From: Hydrolagus affinis
Taxonomy: Eukaryota
DNA length: 64,000 nucleotides
Assembly: GCA_012026655.1 (NCBI GenBank)
Contig: JAAILG010001094.1
Coordinates: 1-64,000, forward strand
Direction: 5' to 3'
The stretch's first letter is position 1; the number at the start of each line of letters is the position of its first letter. Positions 20,093 to 63,237 of this stretch are shown here, piece after piece. The notes under the pieces were generated by a model. It saw nothing but the letters and a program-made list of their open reading frames with translations, was not told the DNA's origin and searched no databases. Position numbers and translations under genes: made by a program.

Positions 20093-20147
20093 ATGGGGTG
20101 TGGCACATCAATCAACACTGAGAAACAGGCCAAGAAATCTGAGAAAG
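20093..20147 (+). CDS. PPEF1: PPEF1 coding exon 1
   Basis: gccATGG Kozak context. [18 protein letters not shown], donor G|gtgagt. Confidence 0.88.
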
Positions 20148-21847: not shown

Positions 21848-21880
<33 letters not shown>

Positions 21881-33800: not shown

Positions 33801-36800
33801 TTGTGTGTCAGTCAGAAGGTTGTGGATTCAAACTCAAATTGGGACTTAGAACTCATATAGTCCAAGATGACATTCGAACGCAGTGCTTGGGGTGTGCTGC
33901 ATTGTCAGAGGTACTATCCTTCGTATGAGGTCAAATGGACATTAAAGATTCTATGGCACTATTCAAAAAGGGAAGAGAAATTCTTCCAGTGTCCTGGCCA
34001 AAATAAATTGGCAGTTTGTTTCATGGCTTTCATTGGTTGCTGCATTTGCCCACATAACATTCAACCACTTTACAGTATATCCTGTGAAGCACTTTGAGAC
34101 ATCCTCCCAACATGAAAGGCTTGATGCCAAATGTAAGGACTGGTATTATTCAGTGTTGGAATGCTTTGTCAGAGTGAATCATGCTGAATTAACTACGGTA
34201 ATTAAAATATAAAAAATAACAAATCAAGCAATTTGATAATTATTAACTTGACTGTGAGTATGACAACCCACCGCTCAACTTTGGCATAATGGTTTGACTC
34301 GAAGTGGGTCTGAAACACTGAGAGAGAGGCATTTCATTGCTGGCTTAGAGGATACCAGTTTAACTCAACATTGGGGATGGGGTGGTAACTGTTGAATAAT
34401 TTGATAGCAGTTTTTTGGTGATATTGGATATCACTGGTGATATTTATCAAAACATGTCATTTTCTCACTTGTGTTTCTGATAATCCTTGCATTTGTTTTT
34501 GCACCTTATAATACTGTACATGCAAGCTGTTTTTGTATCATGTTGTCAGGATGTCTCAAAGCATTTCCCAGGATTTTCCTGTGAAGTATAATTGACTGAG
34601 AATTAGTAGGCAAACCAAGCAGCCATTGCGCTCACAGCAAATTATCTCTGTTGTAGTCAAACATTTAGATTTTCAAAATAAGAAACCAATAAGAAATAAT
34701 GTCACCATTCAATGCTTCTACTCTCCAAATTCTGAGGGGTATAAATACACATTTTTAAAGGCATAGTACTAAAATGTGAAGTACATTCATCAGAATTCAA
34801 TCCTAGAGCCTTCTGTCACAAATTCCTTGTAGCTCACCCACTAAAATATCTGGAAAGTTGTTTGAGGAAGTCTAATGCTCCAAGTAAATGCAGTCAGTAA
34901 GTCTTTTGATATAAGATGAGTTAATCATGTACAGTATACCAGACCGATGCTCCAAAATTATGATTTTGTTTAGTTTCATAGCCAAAGGATTCTACAACTG
35001 ACACAGGATGTTTTTAGTTGGCTGCCATTAGCAACAATAATTGACCATAAGGTGCTGGTTCTCCATGGCGGCATCTCTGACACAACAGATTTGGATAGTC
35101 TGGCTTTGATAGAAAGGTGCAAGGTGAGTACTAATGTTAATTTCAACCCCATGGCACATTATTGTCTTTATGAAATAAAATGCAAGTTCCACTCAAGCCA
35201 CTGTGCAATTGTATGAGACTCATAGTATCAGGCCATTCTATAGCACCTCGAAGGGATTGACAAAGAATATTCAATATGTATAATTTCTCACATACAGTAA
35301 TTTTGTTTAGTAAAACTGCAATATGTTCCCTGAAAATCACGTTTCTTTTTTGTAATTATAATTGATGAAATGCGTGTTGTTCTCATGTAATTCTGCTTTA
35401 GAAAGTCATAGGAAAGATTGAGGTGAAGAGAATCCTTTGGTTGGTTTTAATCTCACCTTCCAGAACGCCCACATGTATCATTTCCCCATTATAGTATCAA
35501 TCTGTTTCTAAATGAGTTCAGCTTTCAAGCAATCACACTTCCTTTCAGTGCCTTGGGATGTCTTCCCAACATGAAAGGCACACTGTACATGCAATTTTTG
35601 TTGTCGTTGTTGTTCGTGGTTCCAGTTGCTGATTACATTCAGTGTAAAGAAGAGATTCCTGGTCTTAATCCCCAAATTATCCTTTGCAAACATGTAATTT
35701 CTTATCCTACTATCTACGTGTACCTTACTTAAGTATTGTTCTTTCACACTCCCAATCCTTTTTCAATTCACAACTACATACATGGCGTCTCTTCTAAGGT
35801 ATCCAACCTGCCCACCCCCTCCGCTCAGTGTGTGGCCTGCTCCACATCCCCCGACCCACCCGCCCCACCATTGGCAGGCGAGCCTTCAGCCACTCTGCTC
35901 CCAACCTCTGGAACTCCATCCCGCAGTCCCTCCAACTCACCCCATCCCTGGCGTCCTTCAAGTCTCGCCTCAAGACTCTCCTCTTCGATGGACCCATCGG
36001 CGACTCCTAATCCCCCCCTTCCCTCCCCCCCCCCCACCCCGTTCTCAGCTCGGGTCTGAAGCAGTGACTAACCTGTACCTTGGGATGTCCTCCTGACGTG
36101 AAATGCATTATACAAGTGTCATTTTGTTGTTGTTTTTCTCACCCCAGCCACCACCGATTATAAAGCCCGAGCTGATCTAATTGTTCCTTAGGAAACATTC
36201 TTGTAACACTGGGGAACTGCTGTCTTGTGGCTTTTCATTGCATTGCCAAAACACTGTGATTGATAGCACAGGTTGAATAACCTATCCTGAATCCTTGAGA
36301 TCAATAACATTATCTGACCCTAGAGTGAAGGGGCTGGCTAACCACTGAAATCAAACATATTTCATTGAATGTTACTGTAAGGCTATATATGTATATTAAA
36401 CTTATAATGGACTGAGTGTTTCATTACCTATTTCTAATTTTACAGATAAAGTCAGCACTCAGGCCACCAAAAGCACATTTGGAAAGAAAGGATGAAAAGT
36501 CTCATAGAAGATCTGGCCTTGAAGAGCAACATTCACAACTACTGGACAGCAATGAGAATGTGCAAGAAGCACTGAAAACATGGAGTATTTCAAGAAACAA
36601 TGCATTCTGCTTAGAGAGACAGACATCAGGGTCATCAGTTTCATGCCATCACTACTTAAGTGAGGAAGAATTGCTCCCAGTTCATTTGAAGCACAAACCA
36701 GGGGAGCAACTATTGGATGGCAATGAGCTAAAGAGGCCCCAACACAATGAGTACTGCTCCACCACAATCTTAGAAGTGTCCCACCTGGACTGTGAAGTAC

Positions 36801-39800
36801 CGACTGCCAAAAAGGCAACCAGCATAGATAGCGATTGGAAGCAGGTGAGTGTAGAATGTATTTTGACCTTTTGCTTTTTCTCTTAAACATCTGGTAACAA
36901 ATGTTGATGCATTTATTTGGAGACATGGTCTTGAGGACAACTGCATGTATGATTAACACATGTATAAATCATCTCTTTGCAGATTATAGACATTCTTTGG
37001 AGTGACCCAAAAAGTCTAAATGGTTGTTTCCCAAACAGTTTCCGAGGGGGAGGATGTTACTTTGGACCAGACATCACAGAAAGAATTCTCAAAAAGTACA
37101 ACTTGAAGCTTTTGATAAGATCGCATGAATGTAAACAGGACGGCTATGAACTATGCCACGGTGGAAAGGTAAAGCAGGCATGCCTGTGCTTTTTCTGTGT
37201 ACTTGCAAAACTATTGCTTCGTTGCTTTTTTTAAAAAAAAAAACATGTGAGACGAAAGAACAGATGAATTGGCAAAGAGCTAAATAAATGAATCTTTTCA
37301 ATGCAGGTGGTCACTATTTTTTCTGCTTCCAATTACTATGAAGAGTGCAGCAATCGAGGGGCTTATATCAAGCTTGGACCTGACCTGGTGCCTCGTTTCA
37401 TCCAGTACCAAGTCAGCAAATCTACAAGAAAGATGACGCTCCGACAAAGGTGTGTACAACAGGAAAAGGTTATAGGATGCCACACCATTATTTGATTTTT
37501 ATTGAAACCTCTCTTCAACTGTGGGCAAAGTGAGCCCGCTTTTGTGGTGTCTCCTATCGTGTGCGCTGTAACTTTTATACAAACCTCCAGTCTGAATGAT
37601 TTTTTTTATTTGAAGGGTGGGCGTGATTGAAGCTTCTGCTCTAAAATCTCTTCAGGAAAAGCTCTTTGCTCACAGGTCAGAGCTTATCGTTGCCTTCAAA
37701 CAATTTGATGAGAATAACACAGGTAAAAACAAAGTAGACTTTTCAGTTATTTATTTATTTATTTATTTAGATTGCACTAAAAATAAGGTTGAATGTTTTC
37801 AATGGGGTGGGGACTAAAGTGGACTAAGAAGAGGGAAGAACAAAAAAAGGAGAAAATATAAGGTAAGTGACAGTGGAGTTTGTCAAGTACTATTCCTGAT
37901 GAAGTGTTCCAGGACTCTACCTCCCCATGATGGGGATCATATCAACACAAGTTGTTGTTTTTGTTTTAATAGTTTACTACTGTACTACCATATTATGAGC
38001 AGATAACATGCAGATAAAACAGAAATGGGAATCTCCATTGACTCCTCAGCATTATGAGAATTAAATTGATGGAATGATGGAATTTGCAGCAGAAAAATCA
38101 TAACCATGGACGTTAAAGAATAGAAATCTCAACACAGAAGGTGGTCATTTATGCCTATACAGTACTCCTAAATACACAGTAATTGCACTTTACAGTATAT
38201 CCTGTGAAACGCTTTGAAACAACAAAACAACTTCAATTTATATATCCCCCTCCATGCCGGACGGCGTCTCAGAGCGCTTCACGATAATGGATCCCGGGCC
38301 TGAGTAAGGGGGAGGGGAAAAAAGGTGACCAATGGCACGGTCAATAAGAAAGGTCTTCAGCTGAGACATCAAACTAGGAAGAGAGGGGACGAGGTGAAGG
38401 GAGTGAGGAAGGGAGTTCCAGAGCTTCGGGGCATAGTGGCTGAAGGCACGGTTGCCGATTGTGGAGCAGAGGATTCGGGGGACAAGGAGGAGACCAGAAC
38501 TGGAGGAGCGAAGGCAACGGGTGCTGTGTTGGGGAGAGGAGGTCAGAGAGGTAAGGGGGTGCAGAGGAGTGGAGAGATTTGAAAACAAGAGTGAGGATCA
38601 TGAATCAATCCTCTCTGGAACAGGGAGCCAGTAAAGTCTGGCAAGGACTGGGGTAATCGGGGAGCGAAGTTTGGTGCGAGACATCCTCCTGATGTGAAAG
38701 GCGCTATATTAAATGTAAGGATTATTATTATTACTCCAATCACATTCTCCTTTTTCCTCATTCCTTTTATATCTTCATTCTTCAAGACTTTGGTACAAAG
38801 GCTATTTGTGCTGTCACATTCCAGCTCCTAACAAAAGAATCATCCATCTTCCCTTTGAATAACAGCATGCAAATGTTGAGCTTTCAAATGTTAACATTAA
38901 ATCAGTACAATATTCAGCTGATGATGCTGTTGAATGCTCTTCACGTGCAAGTTCTGTACCAATGATCCTGTAATAATTCTCAAGTGTAAAGAACATGATT
39001 TGATTGTTTGATTAAAAATAGATATTTTGCTATGAAAAAGAAAATTGAAAATGGAATTCAGACCTAAGAGTCTTTCCCATCATAGAAGATTTCAAAAACA
39101 ATTTAAGTATTACCCTGGCATTGGCTAGCTTTGCCATGGAGAAGTTTGAAATCTTTCCTTACTTTACAGAATTTTATTTTTACATTGACATCGCACCACT
39201 TTAACATATACAAAATCCCAGTCAAATTTCACAAAATTATAGATCATGAAAATCTCAACCATTTGGCTCATTATTGTGCCTCAATCATTGTGCCTGTAAC
39301 TCCCCACTATCTTCTCCAACTAGCTACCCAGTTTAATCCCCTTCCCTGCCTCTTTCAGTACTCTTTTACATCTTCATTAAGATAGCATTCCCTTTAAAAT
39401 TGCTGTGATTCAATCACATGCAATAGCATCGTGCCCTCACTTGAGATCCACACATCGGTGTACTTTCCAGTCACTGGATAGAAATGAGCTGTGTGAATTT
39501 TGTTGATTTCCCCCTCCTTAACCCTGGATGCTATAGCACTTCGACAGCTGACTGTCCACCTGACTGAGCTCAGCTGGCACAGTACAAACCAGGGATTAAT
39601 CCTATGAATCTTCTTTCTCTGAATAGTTCATCTCATCAGATGGCAGTATTGATAATAATCCTTGCGTTTTATTTACGTCGTCGAGACGTCTCCAAACGCT
39701 TCACCAAATATATGGTAAAATTAGTGACTGTGTTTGCAAGATGTACAATTGCCGCCTGAATCTTTGGAGGAACCAAGGTGCTTGGTTTAAAAATCAAATA

Positions 39801-42800
39801 AGTGCGTACAGAAATGACAGATAAAATATTTCTTTAAAAAATATTCCGCCCAAAACAAACATGCAGGGAAGATTACGACAAGTGAGTGGGCGATAGCCAT
39901 GGGATCTGTGCTCCATTTAGACCTCCCTTGGAGGACTCTGCGCCCTCGAATGGTCCGATTGGTGGATGGTGCGAATGTGCAATACCTTTCGAGCTTCGAA
40001 AACCTTCAGATTGAACAGCCCATGAAAGAAGTAAGATTATGTTGTGAAATTATAGGTTTACAAGATTGCAATTCAACAAATAATTATATGTAACTTAACT
40101 CATCCTTGGGGAAATTCTAAACTAACCGTACACATTGTTTACAGTAATCATACTGCGTGTCTGGACTGAAAAAGAATAAAATTGTATATAATCATTCTTG
40201 CATCAGAATCTTGTAAAACCATTAACAATTTGCAACATGCTGAAACTGAATCACAAATGATATCCTTGTTCACAGATCAAAGCTCAAAACGCATAACTGT
40301 GTGCCCTAGTGCTTGCCTAGTTGAAATGAATGCTACTTTAGAATGAGGCAGTGTAGTCTGCCTTAGAACTGGAAATGTGTCTGATTGTCTACAACTGCAA
40401 TATATAGTCTCAATCCCAAACTGAGGCGATGAACATCAAAAACGGATTTGAGAATTGACATTCATGCTACACTTGTGGACAATTGGACACATTTCCAGTT
40501 CAAAGGGATAATGGATCCTGTGAGGATTAATGAACATTCTGGTCTTTTACTTTATTACCTTTTGGGATCAGGGAATATTTATACATCCGTTTTCATCAGG
40601 AGAAATAAATGAGTGGAATAGACTGGTTAGATTGTATATGGTCTATAGAAAGAGGAAGCCAAAATGCCCAAACTCATTCTATCCTATTTCCTATTGTTCT
40701 TATTACTTTAAGGTAGTCGGGGCAGTGACATCCTGAGCAGTCCCACCAATTCCATATGATCTTTGGTCTGGGTGTAGTGATGGATGCCATAGTCATCTTA
40801 TAAGATATGCCACTGTATTTAGCAATATCGTGGAAACAGGGAATTTGACATGCAGAATTGTTTTCTTTCACTCTTGCCTTACATTATGAAGTTTTAATGA
40901 GTTGGGGAAAAGTACTGATGGTGCTTATGTAAAACACTGAGAAAAGATGACTTTTATGAACGGTGAATACATATAAACCCCTGCAAGATCATGCTCTGCC
41001 CGACATTTACCAATAGTAAATTGTATAAAAATATACATCCACAGTAATGAGAATCTGTCAATCAAATGAAGAAAGGTTGAATTGTGTTGACAATTATCAT
41101 TGTGATCCTGCAGGCTCAGCCAAGCTTAATAGAATCCATGTACAGGCATCGGGCAGACCTACAGATCATTTTTAGCATGATTGATAAGGATCATTCAGGT
41201 AATTATTTTCTTGGATTGTATTTGATATTGATATATTTATTGAAATAATATTTAAGAGCTTTTCAATGGCTATGTTGATAAATCTGATGCTGGATAGACA
41301 GTTGGAGGAGAAAGGAATTGTGTCCAAAGTTGTTCTCCCAAAATGATGAAATTATGATTTTTAAAATGTTGCACCAATCATTGGCAATATCAATCATTAC
41401 CTTGTATGCTTGAATGGAACAATGTAAAGCAGCAACTATATTTATACTTCTTGCTCTACATCAAATTGGTTGGGAACATTAAATCTAACACCAGGTTCTG
41501 CATGTGAGCAATGATAAATAATTATAAGAATAATAATCATTGCATTTGATGTATTGCCTTGTCAAATCATCAGAAGGTTTCAAAGTGTTTCAAAGGAATG
41601 ACTATAAAGCGTATTCACTGTGTATTTGCCGGTGAACTAAACACATGTTCAGAAACCTGATATTGGGTGCTAGGTATGTTTAATGTTATTATAGAACCAG
41701 GTACAAAACCTGTGGTTTAATAACAGTAATAAAGGTGCCTTTAAAGTTCTTGAGCTGGTCACTTGAAAGGTTTTAATGAAGCATTTTAGAGTGGAACCCA
41801 AGCTCGATTTCCACCCAGTGGATTTATACTGTAGCACTTTGAATTAAGGTGAAAATCTGTACACTATAAATATTTCAGTAACTTAAAAATGATTTACATA
41901 CATGTTACTATTCACGAAAAAGGCAGTAAATGTCCTTTTATATGGGCAAGAAAATTAAACTGAAGAGAACTGCGAAAACAGTAACTATGGCAACATTTTT
42001 GCAGCTACAAAAGCGGCTGTTTATTTTAGGATGATTGTGAATCACAGCATCCCAATTATTCAAGCAAAATATTATTGGAATAAACCTACTGATTCTTGCA
42101 CCTGAAACTTTTGTTTGCAGTCAATGCGAATGCATTGGTCAGACTTGTCTCGGTGCAATCTCCTCATCTATGTTTTAGTGAACACATTTATCAATTTATC
42201 TATGAATTGAGCACTTACAATTCCTAATACTTGGACTAAATGGCAGCTTCTCTTTAACGAGATTTGAGTCTTCTCTTCCAAACATGATGATGGGGATACA
42301 CAGCTGTAGCCAGTTATCAACCTTCCAGATGACCTTGTAAGCCAAAAATACCAGTTAGCACAGCTTCTTTAAAACTCCCCTGGGCCAAGATCCAGAACTG
42401 CTCTTGCCACAGTTGGTTCATGTTCATGTTATGTGAAAGATATTCGGCTAAGATATTTCAAACATCTGTTTTGTCTGAAGACCACTCTGTTATTGTTCCA
42501 AGTCTGAAATTATTGCAGGTAGCTTTTGAGCGTGGCTTCTGACAATCACTAGGGAAAAAAACTTTTACGGCATTAAGGTCAAACAAACAAACCTTGTCCT
42601 TTTGAGAGTTTGCAGTGAAGTTATTGACCAAAATGTGAGATCTATTCTGTGTGATAGAATATTCAATCAATATTGTGTCAACCGTACATTCTGCTTCACT
42701 CCCTAATGTAATGAATTTATCGCAATGTACAGTACTTACAATTAACTAATTACATTTCAACGATGAGTAAGATTGCATTTGAATATTAAATTGTAATATA

Positions 42801-43255
42801 AATGAATATGACATATTATTATGTGTTATTATAAGCACACGTAAGCAAAATCAATATCTTTAAGTATTTAAAGAGAAACTATTTAAAAGCATTCAGGGGA
42901 AGAGCAGGTAATTGGGTACATAAATGCCACGGAGGAACGAAAACTGGAATATCTTTGCTGGGCTGGATGTGACCTTGTGTGTTGTAATTTCTATGATTCA
43001 ATGTGTCATTAGCAAACAGTAAACGCTCAACATTGAATAAGAATTTGTCACTTTTGTGCAGGGTTGATCTCCATTGAAGAATTCCGCCAGACCTGGAAAC
43101 TTTTCTGTTCACATTTGCACGTAAACACCAATGACCAGTCCATTGATGACTTTGCTCGGAGCATTGACTTCAACAAGGACGGCAACATAGATTTCAATGA
43201 ATTTCTAGAGGCATTCCGTTTGGTATATAAGTGTGACCAAAAGGATAGTAACTAA
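20093..43255 (+). CDS. PPEF1: Serine/threonine-protein phosphatase with EF-hands 1 (rdgC family), complete, 16 coding exons, 737 aa
   Basis: Exons: 20093-20147, 25265-25392, 26758-26818, 29106-29281, 30002-30116, 31272-31318, 32081-32247, 33403-33439, 34974-35123, 36446-36844, 36983-37168, 37307-37449, 37616-37722, 39867-40030, 41114-41198, 43062-43255. All introns are GT-AG and the total is 2214 nt in frame. N-terminal MGCGTS acylation motif, IQ motif, PPP motifs GDLHG/GDFVDRG/RGNHE/HGG/RSHE and C-terminal EF-hands. Position between RS1 and PHKA2 supports PPEF1 over PPEF2. Confidence 0.93.
20345..20822 (-). mobile_element. L2 LINE 3' fragment
   Basis: Translates [45 protein letters not shown], followed by the L2 3' tail. 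Confidence 0.9.
20825..20940 (+). mobile_element. Penelope-like element remnant with degenerate hammerhead motif
   Basis: TTGACAAAGGGTCATGAACCCGAAAC followed by CTGCTGAGTGTTCCCAGC...AGATTTCCAGCATCTGCAGTATTTTGC, which I recognise from memory as a chondrichthyan Penelope-type terminal repeat. Confidence 0.5.
21833..22110. mobile_element. hAT-Charlie-type MITE (278 bp)
   Basis: Terminal inverted repeats CACTGGTTCCCAAC and GTTGGAAACCGCTG. Imperfect 8-bp target-site duplication GTCTACCG / GTCTAGTG, close to the NTCTAGAN Charlie preference. Confidence 0.75.
22543..22850 (-). mobile_element. Full-length young SINE
   Basis: Complete reverse complement of the family consensus with intact A and B boxes. 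Confidence 0.92.
23950..24595 (-). mobile_element. L2 LINE 3' fragment
   Basis: Translates [43 protein letters not shown] with frameshifts, plus the L2 tail. Confidence 0.9.
25265..25392 (+). CDS. PPEF1: PPEF1 exon 2 (IQ motif)
   Basis: (V)[42 protein letters not shown], flanked by AG and GT. Confidence 0.95.
26047..26661 (+). mobile_element. Tigger/pogo-type (MER6-like) non-autonomous DNA transposon
   Basis: TA|CAGGTAG...TTAACGTTG...TTTCGTT at the left end and CGTTTCGCTTAAAGTCGCA...GAGGAATAATTG|TA at the right end, with TA target-site duplications. A related inverted copy lies at 56372-56586. Confidence 0.7.
26758..26818 (+). CDS. PPEF1: PPEF1 exon 3
   Basis: [20 protein letters not shown], tttacag|...|gtgagt. 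Confidence 0.9.
27944..28242 (-). mobile_element. Full-length young SINE
   Basis: Complete reverse complement of the family consensus. Confidence 0.92.
29106..29281 (+). CDS. PPEF1: PPEF1 exon 4
   Basis: ...[35 protein letters not shown]. Confidence 0.93.
29303..29603 (+). mobile_element. Full-length young SINE
   Basis: A and B boxes, body and (ATT)n tail. Starts about 22 nt after the exon 4 donor. Confidence 0.9.
30002..30116 (+). CDS. PPEF1: PPEF1 exon 5
   Basis: [38 protein letters not shown](G). Confidence 0.95.
31272..31318 (+). CDS. PPEF1: PPEF1 exon 6 (GDLHG motif)
   Basis: (G)[15 protein letters not shown]. Confidence 0.95.
32081..32247 (+). CDS. PPEF1: PPEF1 exon 7 (GDFVDRG, RGNHE)
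   Basis: [55 protein letters not shown](R). Confidence 0.97.
32568..32935 (+). mobile_element. Young SINE, long variant
   Basis: tRNA head, central insert CTGTTTACCCAACAGTCAGTAGGAAC..., body and tail. Confidence 0.88.
33403..33439 (+). CDS. PPEF1: PPEF1 exon 8
   Basis: (R)[12 protein letters not shown], 37 nt, tttcag|...|gtaagg. Confidence 0.92.
33805..34140 (+). mobile_element. Diverged Deu-domain SINE
   Basis: GTCAGAAGGTTGTGGATTCAAA...GTGCTGCATTGTCAGAGGT...GGACATTAAAGATTCTATGGCACTATTC...TGTCCTGGCCAA plus tail. Confidence 0.7.
34974..35123 (+). CDS. PPEF1: PPEF1 exon 9 (HGG motif)
   Basis: [50 protein letters not shown]. Confidence 0.95.
35780..36135 (+). mobile_element. L2 LINE 3' fragment
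   Basis: Translates [51 protein letters not shown], plus the L2 tail. Confidence 0.9.
36446..36844 (+). CDS. PPEF1: PPEF1 exon 10 (catalytic-domain insert, 133 aa)
   Basis: IKSALRPPK...SIDSDWKQ, tttacag|...|gtgagt, phase 0/0. Confidence 0.9.
36983..37168 (+). CDS. PPEF1: PPEF1 exon 11
   Basis: IIDILWSDP...[19 protein letters not shown]. Confidence 0.97.
37307..37449 (+). CDS. PPEF1: PPEF1 exon 12
   Basis: [47 protein letters not shown](R). Confidence 0.96.
37616..37722 (+). CDS. PPEF1: PPEF1 exon 13
   Basis: (R)[35 protein letters not shown](G). Confidence 0.94.
38220..38730 (-). mobile_element. L2 LINE 3' fragment
   Basis: Translates [41 protein letters not shown]. Closely related to 23950-24595. 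Confidence 0.9.
39867..40030 (+). CDS. PPEF1: PPEF1 exon 14
   Basis: (G)[54 protein letters not shown]. Confidence 0.93.
41114..41198 (+). CDS. PPEF1: PPEF1 exon 15 (EF-hand start)
   Basis: [28 protein letters not shown](G). Confidence 0.94.
43062..43255 (+). CDS. PPEF1: PPEF1 exon 16 (EF-hands, stop)
   Basis: (G)[14 protein letters not shown]...[30 protein letters not shown]. Confidence 0.96.
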
Positions 43256-45016: not shown

Positions 45017-45068
45017 ATGGGGTCCATCCGAATTGTGTTGACTTTAATCTTGTTCTTCTTTGACAGTG
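45017..45068 (+). CDS. Sushi-EGF gene exon 1 (signal peptide)
   Basis: [17 protein letters not shown](G), donor G|gtaagt. Confidence 0.75.
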
Positions 45069-48000
45069 GTAAGTCACCTCTGTTTTAATCTGCATGTTTT
45101 TAAAAGGTGTTTAAGATTAGGATAAGAATATTTGACAACTCAGCTAAAAAATGTTGAAAGTACATAAACTTTTTTTTTTAAACATCAGCCAGAAGCGAGG
45201 AGGGTAATATATTTTTCATGAAAATATGATAACCATATTTCTATCATATATGTTTGTTATAAACAATCAAACCCAGGTCTCTTGCTTGGGAGGTGAATGC
45301 CCTAACCTCTGAGTTACAGGACTCCACATACGGAAGTTTCTTTACTCCACACATCTCTGTTTACCTATTAGTAATTAGGAGCCCAGTTGTTAGTAGATTG
45401 GCGGATTGGTTTTCCAGTGGGAATAATTCCTTAAAAAAATTAATTTGGTCAATCAATCTACACTATGTGTGGGACACTGCTGTGCGCAATTGCCTGCCAC
45501 GTTCCTTCCACAAAAATATAGTCAATTCACTTTACAGTGTATTCTGTCAAGCACTGTGAAATTTCTGGAAGGCACAATAAGGTGCTATATAAAAAATGCA
45601 AGGATTATTCTTATTATTATAGATAGTAGTCCAATCATCCTCGTTCTTGCCTGGCTTCACTAGCTCCCCATCCCTCAGAGGATTGAGTGCCAAACATTGT
45701 TCTCACCTTCAAAGGCCTCTACCATCTTGCTCCCCCATACGTCTCCGACCTCCTAACCCCATATCAACCTGTCCACTCCCTCCATTCTGCGAACACCAGC
45801 CTGCTTTAGGTGCCCCGTACTTTCTGTTCCATTGTCATGCATTCAGCATCTCTGCCCCCACAGTCTGGAACTCTATCCTGCAATCCCTCTGCCTCATCCA
45901 CTCTCTTGCCTCCTTCAAGTCCCATCTAAAGACTACTTCTTCAACTGTACATTCAGCTACCCTCCTACCCCCACCACCCCTGCGCTCCACTCTCCTGACC
46001 CCACCTCCCAACTCTGGTCCAAAACCCTCTGACTGTCCAGTACCCTGGTACATCTTTCCGACGTGAAGGCCATTATACAAGAGTAGTTTGTTGTTGTTGT
46101 AAATGGGTTGATTCTTCCCCAGGGCTGCCTCTACGCAGTTGCCCAGGCCTGCGCCAGCTATCTAATGGCCGTCTGTTTTTCCGATATGGTGGGATATACG
46201 TGACCTACTTTTGCAATCCTGGCTTTCAACGCTACGGATATCAGACCAGCAGTTGTGTGACTGGCAGGTGGACCCGAGGTCCTCCAGTATGTGTAGGTAA
46301 GTAGAGAGGGGCTGCTTTCCTCAGCTTCCATTACCAAGTGGTCTATCTTCCTGGCTGCCTCATTCCATTTTTTAATTTTTTTCATGCTTTAATATTCTTT
46401 TATTTCTATCTGCTTTCGCTTTCCATCGATGCTTATTTGATTCTTTTTCTTCTTTTTAGTCCTTCCTTTCATACATTGTTTGTGTTTGGGCCTTAATGTG
46501 AAGAAAGATCATTTAACAGGGTGTGCTGTCACCTAGTGGGGGTTTGATGTTAAGCCAAAAAACTGCAAAGAGTTCTGCTAATTCAGGCTTTCTCCCCACA
46601 GCCCATAAACACACATAAGCAAGGGGTAAAAATTCCAATAAGCTTTATAGGCAGCACCTTTGACAATCTGTGATAATAATGGCAAATCCCATTGGTGACA
46701 GTCAATGCCAAAGGCAGTCAAATTTTTATCATTATTTATTAAATAGACCCCTCTAATAAATCACTACATAGTTTCACTGGGGTTCTAATTGGCAAATGGC
46801 AAAGGGGATAAAATGCTGATGCGTCCTATCATCTAATTGTGTTTGAGGGCGACTCCCTGAACCTTGTCTCAGACACCAATTGAGGATAGTATATCTCTGA
46901 GAGCTTGGAATTTCCTTTGCTTGCACTATCGCTCATAGAGGTAGAGCATTGTGCAATCATTGTGGCTCAGCCTCCATCTGGGTACCCACAAAATCTGTGA
47001 GCTACAGACTTTTTTTAAAAAAAATTCCACTGAGAACCATAGTATATTTATCTCATTGCAGCTTCTGGATGCCCGGAATTTGGGACTATTCTGCACGGAA
47101 GCAGGACTTTGAACAAAGACAGCTCTATTGCCAGATTCACTTGTGATTATGGATTTGAACTGTTTGGAACGCCAACTCTCTACTGCAATGGGAAAAAGTG
47201 GAATGGCACCAAGCCTGCTTGTAAAGGTGCAACAATTTCTTGACATTCATACTTCGTTTTGCTTGGGTCCATATTAGGTAAACAGTCAGGTTTGCATATT
47301 CTTAAACATGGTAATCGGGTTCTGCTTGTGTCAACAACAACAACTTAAACTTATAAAGCGCCTTTCACGTCGGGAGGACGTCCCAAGGCGCTGCACAGGA
47401 GGCGTGTGACCCGGGCTGGGAGGGGAATGTTCGGGAAGGGGTGAAACACGTAGGGGAGGTCGAAAAATTCAGGGGGGAACAAAAGGCACAGTTGAAGAGG
47501 AAAGTCTTAAAACCGGCCTTGAAAGAGGAAAGGGAAGAAACCAGACGGAGGGATTGGGGANNNNNNNNNNNNNNNNNNNNNNNNNNNNNNNNNNNNNNNN
47601 NNNNNNNNNNNNNNNNNNNNNNNNNNNNNNNNNNNNNNNNNNNNNNNNNNNNNNNNNNNNTCTTGAACTCGATCCTCTGGAGGATGGGGAGCCAGTGGAG
47701 ACGGGCGAGGGTGGGGGTTATGTGGTCGCGGAGGCGGGTGCGGGATAGTACACGGGCTGCAGAGTTTTGGATGACCTGCAGCCTGTGAATGGAGGAACTG
47801 GGGAGGCCGACGAGGAGAGAGTTTCTGTAGTGCAGCCGTGAGGTGATGTATGCGTGCACGAGTGTTTCGGCAGCGTGGGGGGTGAGGTAGTTGCGGAGCC
47901 TGGCAATATTGCGCAGGTGGAAATAAGCGGTGCCGGTCAAGGCACGGATGTGGGTAGGAAGGAGAGTTTATGGTCGAACGTGATGCCGAGGTTCCTGACT

Positions 48001-51000
48001 GGCTTTGTGAGGTGGAGAGTACAGCCTTGGATGTTGAGGCTGGCAGCGCCCGATGTGCGGAGGCGCTGGCTTGAGCCAATCAGGAGGGCCTCGCTCTTGC
48101 TCACGTTCAATTGGAGGAAGTTGTCCCTCGTCCAGGACTCAATGTCAGACAGACATGAGTCAAATACCCGACTGGAAAATAAATTCTTACACCATATGTG
48201 TGTGTGTAAATCAAACCCTTTTACCTGAAGAGTGTTAGACTTGTGTCTCTGATAGCATGTTATATTATGTGTATGATGGGAATATCACTTCAGATATATT
48301 ATACAATTACAATTTATTTGTTTAAAAATGGGCTTCACACGCATTCTTCTTTCTCCAGAAATAACATTACACTTAAGGTGTCTGCTGGTATGTAAATGTA
48401 AACTGTATCATCTGACAGTTGTGATGATATAGCTGCAGACTCCCTATATTACCAATGTTCCATGCTAATAATAATAATCCTTGCAATTGATATAGCGCTT
48501 TTCACGTCTTCTAGATGTGTCAAAGCTCTTCACAGAATATACTGTAAAGTGAATTGACTTTACAGTAATGTGGGTGAAATGTGGTAATGAATTGTGCACA
48601 ACATTTTCCCACAAACAGTCGTGGATTAAAAATGACCAATTTATTATTGATTTTTTCAAGGGATTATTATCAGGCGTGTGAAGTAAGGAAACTTGCCCAG
48701 GGTATCATCCTGCCTGGAATTTCATCTGAAATTCCTGTGATCTTATGGCTTCTGAAATATTTTATGAACTTGCTATACTTACCTTGAAAATTGTCTTCAA
48801 AGCTATTTAGAGTTTTCTGTTTGAAAATGCAAAACAAGAGGCAATTATAACCGTGTCACTCGATTTATGGAGTTTTGCCCACATATACACAGTCAATTCA
48901 CTTTACAGTATATTCTGTGAAGTGCTTTGAGATATCTAGAAGACGTGAAAAGCACTATATCAAGTGGAAAGATTATTATGATTATTATTATTATCAACTT
49001 ATCAAACGTAACTGATCAAAAAATCTAATAGTTCAAAATAGAGCTGCTTTTATATTTCCTGCCTTACAGTGGAATGATTTTAAATACTCCAGTTAATTCC
49101 CAGTCAGCCATGAAACTCATTTATAATCCTGAGAGAAATTGATTATCTACGAGATGTGGGTTTCAGGAGTTGAGGGAATAATATTACAATCACATGGTAA
49201 TATGGCTTAAATTAAATCTTAGGCTGTTCAGTGAAACTCCACAGCAATGTTTTAGCTGTGAGCAGATTTGAAAAGATTGTTAATACCAATTAAATATTAA
49301 AAGTTGCTAATACCAACAACAACCAGCGTTTATTACGAGCTGCATGTGATTGATGAATACGTTTATATTTTTCATTTCAGAATCTGATCTGATACGGACC
49401 CAACAGAAGACACATTTTGAAACAACTAGATCCACTTTCTTGCCAAACCGAAATAGACCATCATCACTGAAGAAAATATCGGGAAATCTATTTAAACGGC
49501 GGTTTGGTGACACTGCTACACAAACAAATTTTATTAAACATGAGTTCCTGCCAGGGCAAGAGGTTGATGCGGGTACAAGAAGTGTACCAGGCAGAGAGAA
49601 TGTCACTTTAAATCACCTCGTAGTCAACAAGAATACTCACAAAAATAGCCCAGTGAGGGAGGTGCAGGAAAAATCTAACTTGGCTGGAAAGGCTCCATCT
49701 TTTACATCTAGGGAGAGGTTTTCGAACAACAAATCAACAAAGGAAAGATTTAACCATGTGCAAATTCAAACAAATCTAGTAGCTCCATCATCGCCGCCAT
49801 CAGCATCCTCTCCTTCATATTTATCATTCCCAGTGATGCCAAGACTGCCACAACTGCTTTCCACATCAGGGAATCCACCATCCCCATTAGAACCAACAAT
49901 ATTGACACCCTTCACATCACCATTGACACCATCATCATCAACCTCAAATCCACTGCCAATACCTTCCACTACAACAGAGTTACTATCACTATCACTTACA
50001 CCTTCATCAGGGTCATCTAAATCGCTCAGATCTTCGCTGCAAGAGCTTTCAACATCAATACTACAGCGAAATCCCTCCACCCTAACAGAACTTCCCTCAT
50101 CATCACTACCATCCATCTCACCCCCAACATCCTTACTCCGACAGCTTTCAACTCCTTTTCCAAGGGATTCAAACCCAACAGCACTTCCATCCACCCAAAT
50201 ATCTTCCTTAAGGACATTTCCATTCCTTGTGAAAGAAATCTCAGCCTTGCACAGTACCAGGCAACCTCATACTCTTACTCAAAGTGTTGCTGATTTAGCT
50301 TTAGCCAGACCTCACCCAAATGGATGGTTTAGAGAAACAAAGAAACTTGTAGCTGAAAAGCACAGCTTTACTGATGGAGATGAAGATATTGAAGCAGTTA
50401 CAACAAATTTCCAGGGGAAGCAATTATCTTCCAAATATGATCCCAAACAACTACTGTTTAGTTGGATTTTTCCTGAAATGGTCACCATCAATGTGGGACA
50501 TTCAAAGCCAGAAACCTCAGTGAGTGAAGTTGCACTGACCCCACAAGTGTCTACAGGCTCAGCAACCAATGAGTCGTCACCTTCTTTGTCCAAAGATAGA
50601 ACTGTTAAATATACCTTTACTGCAGAAAATGAGACCAGGAACGTCCCCTCTCCTTTCTACTCACTTTTGCATCAATATGAAAAGGAGGAGCTTGTTCCAA
50701 ATGTTAATATGGAAATATCCTTTTCCAGCCTCCCTATTGTTCCTTTTCCAGCAACTGAACTAGTGTCCCCTAAAACGAGAGAAAACCATGAAGACCTCAA
50801 ATTGACGAATCCTTGGTTCAATTCCATCACCACTACAATGTCACCAAACACTGGCACGTCAAATTCCCAAACATACAGAGATATTACATTGCTTGATCCT
50901 AGTGCAAGGGACATTGCCATTGGTACAGAAACTCAATCAAAGATGGATCTAAACAGGCATGAAAATACTGAGCTCTCGATAAAGGCAAGGGGCATGTCAA

Positions 51001-54000
51001 GAGATCATATCCTCTCACCATGGGATACTTCGGTCCAAAAAAGAAACAGAGGAACAAATGGTCAGACTGCTAGCTCATCAAAGGGAACCAAAATTGTCAT
51101 GGAACGTGTAAAGATGCTAACAACGATACAAAGCGAATCAAATAGCAGGGAAGCACAACAGGCTTCCAATGCTAAAGCAATTGTCCAACAACAGGACAGT
51201 CAAATCGTATTAAGGGGAAGCGATTCGGGAAGCAGATCAAATGAGACTGGTGACACTCTTTCCAATGGTGATCAGCTAAATGAAGCAATACTCCAAAGCA
51301 ACCTTGTTGAAATTTCTTTGAGGGAAATGGAAACAACACACATTTATCTAGAGGGGAGAAATGCTTGCCCATCTCCACTCATACCAGATAATGGGATATT
51401 TAATTTCCGAGGCTTGGTTGGACCTTCATCCTTGCAATACAAATACTATGTGCAGTATTCATGTAACTCTGGTTATGCTTTAACCCATGGAGATCAGTTC
51501 AGCTTTTGTCAACACAACGGCATGTGGAGTGGGCAGGTGCCGACTTGTGCTGGTGAGTATACATGGAGTCACTGAGACTCCAAAAAGCCAGTCACAGTTT
51601 CTTAGGTTCCCAATTGCTCTTTAAATAGTCATGCTAATAATAATAATAATCCTTACATTTATATAGCGCTTTCCACATCTTATCGACATCTCAAAGCGCT
51701 TCACAGAACACAACAACATCTAAGATTGGGATCAGAGCAGGGGGGAAGGGAGAAGACAAGAGGGAAGAAAAGGGGGAAAAGAGGTAGGGACCAGAGCAGG
51801 GAGGGAGGGGTCGTGGTTGGGGGAAAGAAAATAGGAAAATTGACTGTATATTTGTGGGAGAAATGCGGCAGCCAAATTGCGCACAACAGTGTCCCATAAA
51901 CAGTTGTGGAAGTGGGGCCAGGGGAGAAAGGGGAAAAAGAGGATAAGGGGGAGAGAGGGAGGAAAGGTGCGGTAAAAATAAAGGAGGAAAAGGTGGGAGA
52001 AAGGGGGGTAAGGGGGAAGAGAGAAGGAAGGGGGAAATATCAAATAAAAAAGGGGATGTATAATAATATATTTTTATATGTAATAATCCTTACATTTGGT
52101 ATAGCATCCAGTGGGACATCTCAAAGTGCTTCGCAACATATACTGTAAAGTACAATGACAAGAAAATTACATTTATAGAGCACCTTTCATGTGGGGAGGA
52201 CATCCTGCTAGTAGAGTTTTGTGGGCAAATGTGCAATTGATTCAGTCTCCATTCAGAAACTATCACAGTCCAATAGATGGCCCCAGATTTTAAAAGATTT
52301 TAAAAGATACTATTTTTAATGTTATTGAAATGTTACATTTTTGTAGACTATTTCTCAAGAAAGGATCATCATTAGTTGTCCTGCACAACTAAAATGTTTC
52401 ATTAAATATACCGTTTCTAGTTTGAGACCAATAGCTTTTCACTTCCTTATTTTGGAGTCACATATGAATCCGGTCACAGGAGATACGGGAAACAGGTAGT
52501 GAAATAATAGTTTACTAGAATTGTAGTAGCAACAACAAGAACAAAATAACATTTGTATAGTGGAACATAATCCAAAGTATTGTCTGGGTATTCATTGTTA
52601 ACTTGATGCATGTTCTTTTTAAAGACGTGAATGAATGCATCATTGGACTGAACGACTGTCAGCAGATCTGTGTCAACACCTTTGGGTCTTACAAGTGCAA
52701 TTGCCAGACAGGCTTTCTCCTTACTCACGATGGAAAGACATGTGCAGGTAGTTTATACGTGGTCCTGATGATACTAAATGATAATCAACCATATATCATT
52801 TGCAAGATTGCAGGGTTTGCTCAAAAGAATTAAGGAAAAATGGGTGTCTTCTGATTTGTGGTCGTGGCTGTTTTATTTACTTTTAATGCTTTTTTCAGCT
52901 GTTAAAAAGGACAGAAGATTCCAACAGAAGGTTAGAAAGATAAATACCAGACACAACATGGCCAATTTTCAGGATTCTAATATTATGGTGATTTTCAGTG
53001 AATTTATTAGTGAATATGTTGGGCAATTTGTTAGGGAATACATTAGGGAATATGGTGTGTTACATAGGGAATACATTTAAGGAATATGATGTGGCCTTTG
53101 TGAGATCACTGTTTATGGCATCTGTATAAGGACCCATTGGCTGTTGCATTTGCCTACAAATACGTAGACTTGTGCTAAGCAGTTAGTTATATGTTGGTAG
53201 AGATCCATATTCCTGAAGCTGTTCAAAATTACTTGTAAAATCTGTTTCAGAGCTTTTTTCCCAGTAATTCTGCAAATATTTGTTTAAGAAATCGATTTTT
53301 AGGGATTGGGACCATTTGCAAATATGGATTAAAATGTGAATTGGTATATCAGAAATCAAATATTCATGTATTTGGATATGACTGCACAGGAATAATAACA
53401 TAATAATCCTTGCATTTGATATAGCGCTTTTCACATCTTATCAACGTTTCAAAGCGCCTCACAGAAAATACTGTAAAAAGTGAATTGACTGTATATCTGT
53501 GGGTGAAACTCGGCAGACAATGACAGGAGCTAATATGAATACTATTTTTTTTGTTGCAGATATTGATGAATGTATCCTTCCAGTTGGAATTGCCAGCTGT
53601 CTGTTTGGCTGCATCAACACTGCAGGGAGTTTCATATGCCATTGCCCAGAGGGATACCAGTTGAGCACCACCAATGGGCACTGCAAAGGTAGGTGTCAGA
53701 CAGAACTTCAATATTATTGAACACTCTTTAAAGGGACAATTGAAAAATGTACAGTACTGAGAAGAAGTAATGTACCCGACCGTTTGTTTATATTTGCGTT
53801 ACATTCTGACAGGAGTTACATGTTTATAGGTTTAACAGTGTGAAATGTGAAACAGAACTCACTTTCAAAAGTATAAGTTGCTGCCTAAAACACAGTACTG
53901 TATAACTGCACCAGTGACAGTGAGCTGTAACTTTTCTCCCACCCCCTCAAAATGCTTGTGATATTTATTCATTCCAAATGCAGTATTTAAATATTTTATT

Positions 54001-55969
54001 TAACCCAAATAATTGGATTGTTTTCATGTTCAATTTTTCATTACAGAATTGGGACGTCCTCCTGAAGTGAATAGTGCTATACAAAAAAAATTGTTGTTGT
54101 TTTCATTTTGTTGTTGTATTATGTTGAAAATGTTTGTCTCAATTGTCGTTTGAAAACATGTAGATATTGATGAATGTGCAGAGAATAATGGGAGAGGCCC
54201 TTGTGCCATGGAATGCCAAAATACTCTTGGTTCCTTCAGCTGTTCTTGCTTGTATGGATATAAGCTGGCAGGGGATGGACAAACTTGTATTGCAGAATGT
54301 CCCTCTGGCTATAGGAAAGAGAACCACGTGGAGAGACCTAATTGGCACAGAGAGATTCAACAATGTGTGGGTACGTATCTCAGGCTATCTGGGTTCTTTC
54401 CGTTTTCCATTGCATTCTCTGCCCTTCCTTCAATCAATTTTTGAATATTTTAAATCAGCAGGACATAGCAGATTAAATATTTCTTTACAAGCTCCAGGCT
54501 TCAAACTGCATTGCTCCAGTTTAATGAATTGCCTGGCCATTGATTTTAACTAGCTCCAATCTCTCACTGCACAAATAAGTACATCAAAGTAAATGTGTTT
54601 TTCATTTCATGCACCCCTCCTCTCCTTTGGGTATCTTGACCTCTTTTATCTTCCACTGATTTTGAGTTCTATGATTGAAAGTTAACATCTGGAGACCCAA
54701 GGGGGCACTATTCAAGCTGAGTCTTGATAATGAGTGCCGGTAGGTTACTCAAACATAGTGACATCACTGGCAACTGCAGCAACCCACTGCTGCTCTAGTT
54801 GAGGGATAAGGCAACTTAGCACTTAGTTTTAGGTTTGTATGGGTTAGTGCTACAGTCATGCCTTTAACCATTAGACCACTGAGAGACCTACTCTTTGTTT
54901 ACACCAGATCTCAATCAGCTCACATGCAGTTGTTCTGATTCTATTCCTACAGATATTAATGAGTGCCTGGATGGTTTCAGTCAACATCGCCCTTGTGAAT
55001 GGAAATGTCTGAATCTTCCAGGCTCTTACCGTTGTATATGTCCTCGTGGGTACAAGCTGAACAAAGATAAGCATCACTGTGAAGGTGAGCAGTGCGGTTA
55101 GTTTAATGACTGTTATCACTGTCCTTATTGCCTTTATTGTGACTGACTACTTATAAAATATCTCAGATTGCTCAAAGAAAAATATCCTGAGCAGCACAAA
55201 AATAGGAATTGCAGGAAAAATTGTACTGAGTGTCAAAGGATTCACCCCCAAAAAACTTAATAAAATCATAGAATATTACAGTATAGAAGAAGAATATTGG
55301 CCCATTGTGCCTGTGCCGGCTCTTTGGAAGAGCTACCGAATAAGTAACACTCCCGCATTTTTTCCCCTTATGCTTGCAAATTTTTCAAGTATCTATCTAA
55401 TTCCCTTTTGAAAGTCCGTATTGAATCTGTTTCCACCACCCTTTCAGGCACTTTTCTTTTTAAATTGTTGTTGCTATCCGATTTTTAATTATTACCCCTC
55501 TCTAAAGTTTCCTCTCTTTTAACATGCTGTCTCTTAGAAACACTCGGATCATCAAACTTGATCCACCAGTTTATTCAGTTTATCAGATTGTGTCCGATCT
55601 TTTAGTCCCATTTCACAACTGTTCTCGATATTCTTATGCCTTACTTCCCAAGTTTGTAAGTAACGGGTGATATTTGCCCCAATACTCTGGAACACTCATC
55701 CTCTATCCTTCTTCCTTGCCCCATCCTCCTCTTTCTTCAGATTGCGCCTGCCAATCTTTGTCTGATATTTTCTACACATCATGAAAAGTAATTTCCTTTT
55801 CAAGTAATGATTTTCTGTTAATATTGCAGATGTTAATGAGTGCAGCTATAAAAATGGTGGCTGTTCCCACCTCTGCATCAACACTAATGGTGGATACCGG
55901 TGTGAATGCCCAGAAGGTTATGGCTTCAGTCCTTATAGCAGGAAGAACTGTCAGGCAATTGGAGTATAG
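45017..55969 (+). CDS. Uncharacterised secreted sushi/CCP-mucin-like-cbEGF protein, 9 exons, ~1097 aa (loosely fibulin-7-like)
   Basis: Exons: 45017-45068, 46123-46296, 47062-47226, 49381-51552, 52625-52747, 53560-53688, 54164-54370, 54953-55084, 55830-55969. All introns are GT-AG and phase 1, and the total is 3294 nt with an open frame. Signal peptide, three CCP domains and five D[IV][DN]EC...CxNxxG[SG][FY]xCxC EGF domains. Confidence 0.85.
45266..45619 (+). mobile_element. Young SINE (long variant) with inverted 5' head
   Basis: 45266-45327 is the reverse complement of the tRNA head. 45334-45619 is the forward body and tail. Confidence 0.8.
45630..46100 (+). mobile_element. L2 LINE 3' fragment
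   Basis: Translates [32 protein letters not shown], plus the L2 tail ending (TTG)n just before the exon 2 acceptor. Confidence 0.85.
46123..46296 (+). CDS. Sushi-EGF gene exon 2 (CCP1)
   Basis: (G)[57 protein letters not shown], with 4 Cys and the conserved Trp. Confidence 0.9.
47062..47226 (+). CDS. Sushi-EGF gene exon 3 (CCP2)
   Basis: (A)[54 protein letters not shown]. Confidence 0.9.
47335..48155 (-). mobile_element. Relatively young L2 LINE fragment spanning the assembly gap
   Basis: Translates [32 protein letters not shown]...[14 protein letters not shown]. CpG-rich. Confidence 0.92.
47561..47660. other. Assembly gap (100 N)
   Basis: Run of n characters. Confidence 1.
48466..48720 (-). 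mobile_element. 5'-truncated young SINE
   Basis: Reverse complement of the family body and tail. Confidence 0.85.
49381..51552 (+). CDS. Sushi-EGF gene exon 4 (2172 nt: Ser/Thr/Pro-rich mucin-like region plus CCP3)
   Basis: ttttcatttcag|AATCT...GCTG|gtgagt, 724 codons with no stop. Ends [10 protein letters not shown]...[33 protein letters not shown]. Confidence 0.9.
52625..52747 (+). CDS. Sushi-EGF gene exon 5 (cbEGF1)
   Basis: [41 protein letters not shown]. Confidence 0.93.
53560..53688 (+). CDS. Sushi-EGF gene exon 6 (cbEGF2)
   Basis: [43 protein letters not shown]. Confidence 0.93.
54164..54370 (+). CDS. Sushi-EGF gene exon 7 (cbEGF3 plus a two-cysteine extension)
   Basis: [69 protein letters not shown], donor G|gtacgt. 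Confidence 0.9.
54953..55084 (+). CDS. Sushi-EGF gene exon 8 (cbEGF4)
   Basis: [44 protein letters not shown]. Confidence 0.93.
55265..55450 (-). mobile_element. CR1-type LINE 3' end
   Basis: TCATAGAAT...GGCCCATTGTGCCTGTGCCGGCTCTTTGGAAGAGCT..., resembling the reverse of a CR1 3' terminus. Confidence 0.65.
55830..55969 (+). CDS. Sushi-EGF gene exon 9 (cbEGF5, stop)
   Basis: [46 protein letters not shown]. Confidence 0.88.
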
Positions 55970-56350
55970 AGTTTTCAGTGACATTTACAGTCACAGAAAC
56001 CTAGCAGTGTAGACTCCAACTGTCACATACTCATTTCCCTTCAAATCTGGAGTTCCTCAATATACAGTATTGCACACAGTAGTTGTGTTGAAACTGTGCT
56101 ACTTTCACGAAGTTTCAGTGTCCTTTGTATTGATACTTTATATTTTGTAAGTGGATACATTATGTAAATCTATTGGTTAGAGTTTTTCAAATGAAAATGG
56201 CTTAATTAACATGATTTTTTCACTGCATATGGCTTACATCATGGAGAACTCTTTCGATAACAATAATTTGTAACCTTGCATGTACAGTAGTATCAGTATG
56301 TTGTGCGATATACAGCATATATGTATTTTACTTGCTTTCAGAAATACCTC

Positions 56351-56367
56351 AATAAAAATTTAATAAA
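56351..56367 (+). terminator. Tandem AATAAA polyadenylation signals of the sushi-EGF gene
   Basis: AATAAA at 56351 and 56362, about 380 nt after the stop. Confidence 0.55.
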
Positions 56368-62845: not shown

Positions 62846-63019
62846 TTATTGAACAAAACAGCCAGTAATTGGCAAGAAGTCCTGTACATAAGTTGAAACA
62901 GCTTTAGACAAATAAGTCATGGTTCCGTAGCTGCCACTTGGTGCACTGTCAAAGAACAGAAGGCAAATTCCTGTTCTTGGATCCCGCTCTAAAAAGGTGT
63001 CGCTTGCACCTAATGATTT
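62846..63019 (-). CDS. PHKA2: Phosphorylase kinase regulatory subunit alpha 2, last coding exon
   Basis: ttttgtttcag|AAA. Translates [57 protein letters not shown], with the PHKA-family DSAPSG..GTMTYL motif and a CaaX (CFVQ) farnesylation end. PHKA2 rather than PHKA1 is inferred from synteny with PPEF1 and RS1. Confidence 0.9.
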
Positions 63020-63237
63020 CTGAAACAAAAGACAGAAGTATTAAAGCAACAGTGCCACAAAGCCAGTGCCACACATGTGTGCATGTGCACACACATGCAC
63101 ACACATATACATATATGGTTCTGACTTCAAAGGCATCTACAGTATAACCTCAAAATGTAAACAGCATCATAAGGTCAGAGATGATTTGTAGGTGAAAAGA
63201 TCCCTTTGAACTATTTGATTTAGGCTCTGAGAATATA

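Follow-up and report, generated by a model that had tools for sequence, protein, structure and literature searches.

What is the nine-exon gene that lies on the forward strand of contig JAAILG010001094.1 of the holocephalan Hydrolagus affinis (assembly GCA_012026655.1), and what could its product do? The gene occupies positions 45,017 to 55,969 of the stretch that we analyzed, the first 64,000 nucleotides of the contig (hereafter the window), and its predicted protein joins sushi modules (also called CCP modules), a long linker and a row of calcium-binding EGF (cbEGF) modules. The gene is real, spliced and intact, and comparison of sequences identifies it as the single-copy holocephalan orthologue of si:dkey-163f14.6, the name under which many members of one family are filed. 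This family is annotated in databases yet unstudied, and the window gene is a further member built of common modules. An initial annotation, made from the letters of the window, had described an unnamed, ancient gene for a matrix or complement-interacting glycoprotein, and it is partly supported by our analysis. The gene, its splicing, its age and its architecture stand; 'unnamed' does not, as orthologues carry si:dkey-163f14.6 or LOC numbers in many species, nor does the complement role, and a half-module in exon 7 and the non-use of exons 1 and 2 in the RNA described below had been missed.

The reading frame is open over 1,097 codons, and its nine exons are joined by eight introns, each of which is GT-AG and phase 1; the exon positions first proposed were right to within a base or two (Table 1). 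A leader, recognized by hydropathy, is followed by two CCPs, a linker of 662 residues, a third CCP and five cbEGFs, which is the order originally proposed. Pfam matches three Sushi domains (exons 2, 3 and the end of 4) and five EGF_CA domains (one per exon in exons 5-9), all above the curated cut-offs, and both cbEGF consensus patterns are matched by all five EGFs; the Pfam scan of the protein returned only Sushi and EGF families, with no C-type lectin domain. The linker (residues 131-792) contains no cysteine and consists to 33.5% of serine, threonine and proline (S/T/P), rising to 57% in the densest 150 residues (from residue 266). When exon 4 was shuffled 2,000 times, an open reading frame of at least 300 residues appeared in none of the shuffles. 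Hydropathy is highest in the leader (1.73) and in a stretch within EGF2 (1.65), and because this sole peak outside the leader contains cysteine, we read no membrane helix into the protein. The claim that the gene encodes neither a transmembrane segment nor a fibulin domain therefore holds by hydropathy for the former, and for the latter by the absence of Fibulin_C from the contig.

Some details of the exons deserve mention. The half-module of exon 7 (54293-54370, Cys984-Cys1006) resembles half an EGF whose loop is long and variable; salmonid models have it directly after family module E1, without E3. The start of exon 4 (49381-49560) encodes about 60 residues following CCP2 for which chimaera, sturgeon, gar, coelacanth and newt show weak conservation, and which are absent in two carpet-shark models. 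A 100-base gap of N letters at 47561-47660 belongs to intron 3, inside a repeat, and is noncoding.

Transcription can be followed in three RNA libraries (X2, X3 and X4) from one sample of a closely similar organism, of which about 27-30% of each run was read. Reads were mapped at 85% likeness, a level at which intron repeats dominate, and junctions were taken at 97% likeness. In the repeat-free bins of exon 4, depth is 38-53 in X3 versus 0-0.5 in X2 and X4, and the X3 first mates there lie nearly all on the minus strand, which under the usual stranded protocol corresponds to sense RNA. Six of the eight predicted junctions, 3-4 through 8-9, are read in X3, by 20-31 reads each, and X3 reads pass the stop toward AATAAA (depth 24 in bin 55908-56318). 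The initial annotation had proposed that RNA be mapped to all eight junctions, and had named further downstream exons adding a fibulin or transmembrane domain as a ground for rejecting it. The RNA bears out exons 3-9 and leaves exons 1 and 2 unused in X3; its passage across the stop into the 3' untranslated region (UTR), together with the lack of a fibulin module on the contig, speaks against such additional exons. X3 and the window differ at 27 coding sites, 16 non-synonymous and 11 synonymous (40 of 87 differences listed), and these codon differences are too few and too selected for a ratio of non-synonymous to synonymous rates (dN/dS). The introns (for example 47330-48150, 48460-49000 and 53400-53520) contain dense short interspersed repeats and reverse-transcriptase-like fragments, which are abundant in all RNA runs.

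Table 1. Features of the gene and of its neighbors, in window coordinates
Feature	Position	Strand	Evidence
Exon 1: ATG and predicted signal peptide (residues 1-17)	45017..45068	+	14/18 residues identical to older Callorhinchus model; X3 depth 0
Exon 2: sushi/CCP1, basic, net charge +6	46123..46296	+	Pfam Sushi 6.6e-7; 55/57 residues identical to older Callorhinchus model; X3 depth about 0.1
Transcribed 3' part of intron 2, continuous with exon 3; approximate alternative 5' end	46900..47061	+	Start estimated from bin depths
Exon 3: sushi/CCP2	47062..47226	+	Pfam Sushi 2.6e-7; 25 reads to exon 4
Exon 4: 662-residue cysteine-free S/T/P-rich linker, then sushi/CCP3 from about 51365	49381..51552	+	Pfam Sushi; 31 reads to exon 5
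Exon 5: cbEGF, family module E1	52625..52747	+	EGF_CA 4e-10; 22 reads to exon 6
Exon 6: cbEGF, E2	53560..53688	+	EGF_CA 1.4e-9; 27 reads to exon 7
Exon 7: cbEGF (E3) and 26-residue two-cysteine half-module	54164..54370	+	EGF_CA 4.8e-9; 20 reads to exon 8
Exon 8: cbEGF, E4	54953..55084	+	EGF_CA 3.8e-10; 23 reads to exon 9
Exon 9, coding part: final cbEGF (E5), four-residue tail, TAG at 55967-55969	55830..55969	+	EGF_CA; reads pass stop
3' UTR, AATAAA at 56351 and 56362	55970..56367	+	X3 depth 28 at 56076, 17 at 56131, 10 at 56225
PPEF-type phosphatase, upstream neighbor	20093..43255	+	ATG 20093, stop 43253-43255; IQ, metallophosphatase and EF-hand exons
Likely last coding exon of phosphorylase kinase regulatory subunit, tail to tail	62849..63040	-	No Pfam match for this exon

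A search with exon 4 returned one relative, LOC103177488 of Callorhinchus milii. Its older model of 1,101 residues has the same layout as the window protein and is identical to it at 898 of 1,097 residues (82%), with 88-98% identity in the folded modules and 72-81% in segments of the linker; the current model (XP_007889865.2) holds only the last 605 residues, versus 1,101 earlier. A CCP1-2 profile built from seven sequences gave 160 matches among 6,364 candidates, of which 120 were listed. Among those listed, 68 belong to the family (3 elasmobranch, 63 ray-finned fish, 1 coelacanth and 1 newt) with CCP1-2 identities of 48-70%, measured from the Callorhinchus head, which is close to that of the window. 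The other 52 are multi-sushi proteins (CR1, CR2, factor H, CSMD and SVEP1-like) with identities of 28-42%. Members of the family thus span sharks, a ray, ray-finned fishes, coelacanth and newt, examples being Callorhinchus LOC103177488 (XP_007889865), sawfish XP_051869266, coelacanth H3AUQ7, gar W5ML36 and newt LOC144773868. Many are named si:dkey-163f14.6 and some carry LOC numbers, while databases mislabel others by automatic naming as fibulin, SVEP1, mucin-3B, HEG or hemicentin, and even as PPEF1.

In a tree of the core modules (27 rows), chimaeras, elasmobranchs and teleost clades group as expected from the species; the window protein pairs with Callorhinchus (100/99) and is nested in the chondrichthyans (100/99). 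No close paralogue was found in its own genome, where the next matches have E values above 1e-5 for CCP1 and CCP3 and of 3.6e-7 for EGF3. As the initial annotation supposed, the gene is ancient, with orthologues in sharks, bony fishes, coelacanth and newt, and it has been retained from the time when the chimaera and bony-vertebrate lineages parted. Nor is any characterized gene of the same architecture the best match; the best matches are the uncharacterized si:dkey-163f14.6 family. The atlas holds two clusters of this family, of 71 and 78 members, both from Chordata, and in a CCP1-2 search of 50% representatives, 5 of the 150 matches listed are family members, the rest being mostly multi-sushi proteins. 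We found no paper on the gene or its architecture, although supplementary lists (zebrafish matrisome, single-cell atlases) may mention it; the gene was not found in the supplements of PMC10499032. A separate locus, G000:C17502:11153-15579, has an open frame of 902 residues with several sushi matches and is probably a multi-sushi gene, for which the name SVEP1 would be a guess.

We compared 73 proteins, namely the 68 listed family matches, the Callorhinchus model and four further sawfish isoforms; all are gene models, and some gaps in their modules may reflect annotation or splice variants. The order leader-CCP-CCP-linker-CCP-EGFs ending in E4-E5 is common to the window protein, Callorhinchus and the family. 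The modules at the ends are the most widely present (CCP1 in 71 of the 73, CCP2 in 72, CCP3 in 69, E4 in 61 and E5 in 60), and those in the middle vary (Ea 56, E1 62, Eb 6, E2 31, E3 23 and the half-module 25). In contrast to the members from bony fish, coelacanth and newt, the chimaera form is without Ea and Eb; neither occurs in any of the eight chondrichthyan proteins, and no remnants of their exons were found in the window. A stop follows E5 after 2-17 residues in all 60 proteins that end in this module, and no membrane helix was found among them. The hydrophobic leader is clear in 53 of the 73 proteins; of the rest, nine are truncated, six lack the anchor motif and five have a weak leader. 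Linkers could be measured in 53 of 58 aligned proteins and range from 221 to 666 residues (median 351) with 27-40% S/T/P; they are cysteine-free in 45 of the 53, and those of chimaeras are the longest (662-666 residues). Negative FoldIndex values were obtained for 324 of 612 linker windows. The net charge of CCP1 is +3 to +7 in all 54 proteins measured (of the 58 aligned), and at least two lysines or arginines stand ahead of CCP3 in 44 of 53. CCP1 also carries the motif FFRY-G, which is near-invariant and looks exposed, and a motif in the tail of E5 is conserved.

The conserved end modules, the long and variable spacer, the leader and the lack of an anchor suggest a secreted, two-ended tether, and we give an even chance to the reading in which the full-length product is secreted and acts in this way in a few tissues, in their matrix or surface coat. 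The leader, from which secretion is predicted, would export the protein. The basic CCP1-CCP2 head may then bind a polyanion (heparan sulfate or a sialylated glycan) or an acidic matrix protein, while an O-glycosylated and partly disordered linker would set the reach of the molecule and tolerate changes in length. In matrix proteins, cbEGFs in tandem are stiffened by calcium into rods, and CCP3 together with an EGF row stiffened in this manner, which the conserved E4-E5 pair closes, may bind a second partner. We infer all of these binding steps. As only common modules are used, the gene is a family member and a lead, and it implies no new mechanism.

Several observations weigh against this reading. 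X3 has a depth of 0 on exon 1 and of about 0.1 on exon 2, junctions 1-2 and 2-3 are not among the X3 joints listed (a further 38 lie outside the listing), and the secreted form itself is unobserved in X3. Basic charge alone is no proof of heparin binding. Exon 4 contains only two short, weak two-copy repeats in place of a mucin tandem repeat; the linker is mucin-like, not a mucin. Finally, just 4 of 58 proteins carry RGD, 23 of 53 linkers are without an acidic Ser-Gly site and a furin site is present in none of the 53, so that integrin binding, proteoglycan status and processing are unsupported.

In the main rival to the tether, the secreted protein serves a cell-surface receptor or a growth factor as ligand, decoy or chaperone; activity would reside in the EGF row or in the CCP pair, and the linker would do no more than lengthen its range or half-life. 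The near-invariant FFRY-G motif of CCP1 and the conserved tail motif of E5 are what such a protein might show, CD97, NELL2, thrombomodulin and LRPs are the solved structures that the EGF row matches best, and contact between EGF and CCP modules has a precedent in CD97-CD55 (PMC8191316). We consider this rival doubtful, however, as the structure matches reflect no more than a generic likeness of EGFs across repeated modules, EGFs in the middle of the row come and go freely in the family, and no receptor-binding motif was found.

A second rival concerns the RNA itself. X3 transcription begins near 46900, within intron 2, where depth is 15 at 46946, 11 at 46959 and 11 at 47030, versus 0.14 in bin 46455-46865, and a CCAAT at 46876 stands just ahead of this point. 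A second transcription start in intron 2 is likely, and the RNA made in X3 is leaderless, with eight out-of-frame AUGs between about 46900 and the first in-frame AUG at 49836. In sawfish gene models X4 and X5, too, the first exon lacks a leader and connects to CCP2 or to the linker, and no counterpart of this alternative sawfish exon was found in the window. Within the tether model, the RNA from the intron-2 start would lack the leader and would be translated poorly or into a non-secreted fragment. Alternatively, this RNA could be the main product in the lineage, whether non-coding, regulatory or a source of an intracellular fragment, with the secreted form rare; the sawfish models and the current 605-residue Callorhinchus model would agree with this. 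We regard it as improbable. Exon 2 is identical to that of Callorhinchus at 55 of 57 residues and jawed vertebrates have retained the leader throughout, conservation that requires a translated, secreted form somewhere; moreover, disulfide-rich modules do not fold in the cytosol.

Like DAF/CD55, MCP/CD46 and factor H, the window protein has CCP modules, and DAF and MCP carry an S/T/P-rich stalk after theirs. Unlike these complement regulators, it has only two contiguous CCPs, no membrane or glycosylphosphatidylinositol (GPI) anchor, and a C-terminal EGF row. The CCP1-2 profile does match CR1, CR2, factor H and DAF, and a fold search, at 20-27% identity, may point the same way. The structure prediction of CCP1-2 behind that search is poor, with a mean pLDDT (predicted local distance difference test) of 35.5 alone and 50.3 with seven sequences, and since the model is of low confidence the search says only 'CCP pair'. 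Regulators are described as needing a minimum of three to four successive CCPs (PMC6683126), and as only two are contiguous here, with the third 221-666 residues off in the family (662 in the window), a soluble complement regulator or complement-binding protein is quite unlikely, contrary to the complement-interacting glycoprotein first suggested. The gap between the identities within the family and those to non-family sushi proteins (48-70% versus 28-42%, among the matches listed) argues in the same direction.

Fibulin-7, as other fibulins, ends in a C-terminal fibulin module. It is a secreted matrix adhesion protein (FBLN7/TM14) in which sushi precedes cbEGF repeats (PMC8147605), and the window protein resembles it in this combination; by domain description the two are set apart, fibulin-7 having one sushi, and the window protein three, a long S/T/P linker and no fibulin module. 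That the gene is a divergent, fibulin-7-like fibulin with its last exon further downstream would suit the sushi ahead of the cbEGF array and the automatic fibulin names of several orthologues, but it is hardly credible, as X3 reads cross the stop, four residues past E5, into the 3' UTR, Fibulin_C (PF22914) has 10 matches in the genome and none on this contig, and none of the 60 proteins ending in E5 carries more than 17 further residues; fibulin membership is refuted by the missing module and the reads through the stop.

Other extracellular proteins resemble the window protein in part. Group XIV lectins (CD93, CD248/endosialin and thrombomodulin) are built of sushi-like, EGF and mucin-like parts; the EGF row of the window protein matches thrombomodulin, and a C1q-receptor cluster is a structural neighbor, though a weak one. 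Unlike these lectins, the window protein has no C-type lectin domain and no membrane helix, and its mucin-like part precedes the EGFs. SCUBE, MEGF6 and NELL2, which are secreted, share rows of cbEGF and FXa-type EGF modules with it; it differs from them in having no CUB, EMI, laminin-G or VWC domain, and the likeness is one of generic EGF repeats only.

The distribution of the family raises the possibility of a loss on land. The amniote rows among the 120 matches listed are all of CR1, CR2, factor H or CSMD type, and no amniote orthologue was found among these 120 of the 160 matches, in a search whose word filter misses relatives; zebrafish itself is likewise absent from the named rows among the matches listed. 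As birds and mammals are heavily represented in the collection, matches to an amniote orthologue should take up more than the 40 rows outside the listing. Loss in amniotes or mammals is plausible and unproven. A wider reading, which we put forward tentatively, is that the gene belongs to an undescribed single-copy family of secreted tethers of jawed-vertebrate age, maintained from chimaeras to newts in an RS1-PPEF1-PHKA2 block and lost in amniotes or mammals, the fixed ends of which bind specific partners, the length of which is tuned by linker size and loss of EGF exons, and the intron-2 promoter of which toggles between secreted and leaderless products. If it is true, the protein would be a candidate part of an aquatic-only structure such as a sensory gel, mucus or gamete coat. 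Should amniotes indeed lack it, the gene would offer a clean candidate case of a matrix function that was given up on land, open to direct test in zebrafish. The interest of the gene lies chiefly in this possible loss and in its second start site.

The neighbors of the gene are a PPEF-type phosphatase and a gene for a phosphorylase kinase regulatory subunit (Table 1), the latter with KPBB_C matches in two further minus-strand exons beyond the window (contig positions 64271-64540 and 66303-66518). We take these to be PPEF1 and PHKA2 on the strength of the human order RS1-PPEF1-PHKA2 and, for PPEF1, of the carp and loach names given below. Two minus-strand exons at about 5265-5375 and 2373-2516, head to head with the PPEF gene, are presumably RS1-like, judged by their motifs; the discoidin profile has no match on the contig, these exons included. 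They would extend the human order to a holocephalan. Carp and loach models of the si:dkey-163f14.6 orthologue (P0208, P0212 and P0271-P0274) are filed as isoforms of 'serine/threonine-protein phosphatase with EF-hands 1'. Where the ends of these models were inspected, they consist of si:dkey-163f14.6 family sequence only, so that annotations may have been merged or transcripts may read through. The same product names suggest that PPEF1 is the neighbor of this gene in teleosts as well.

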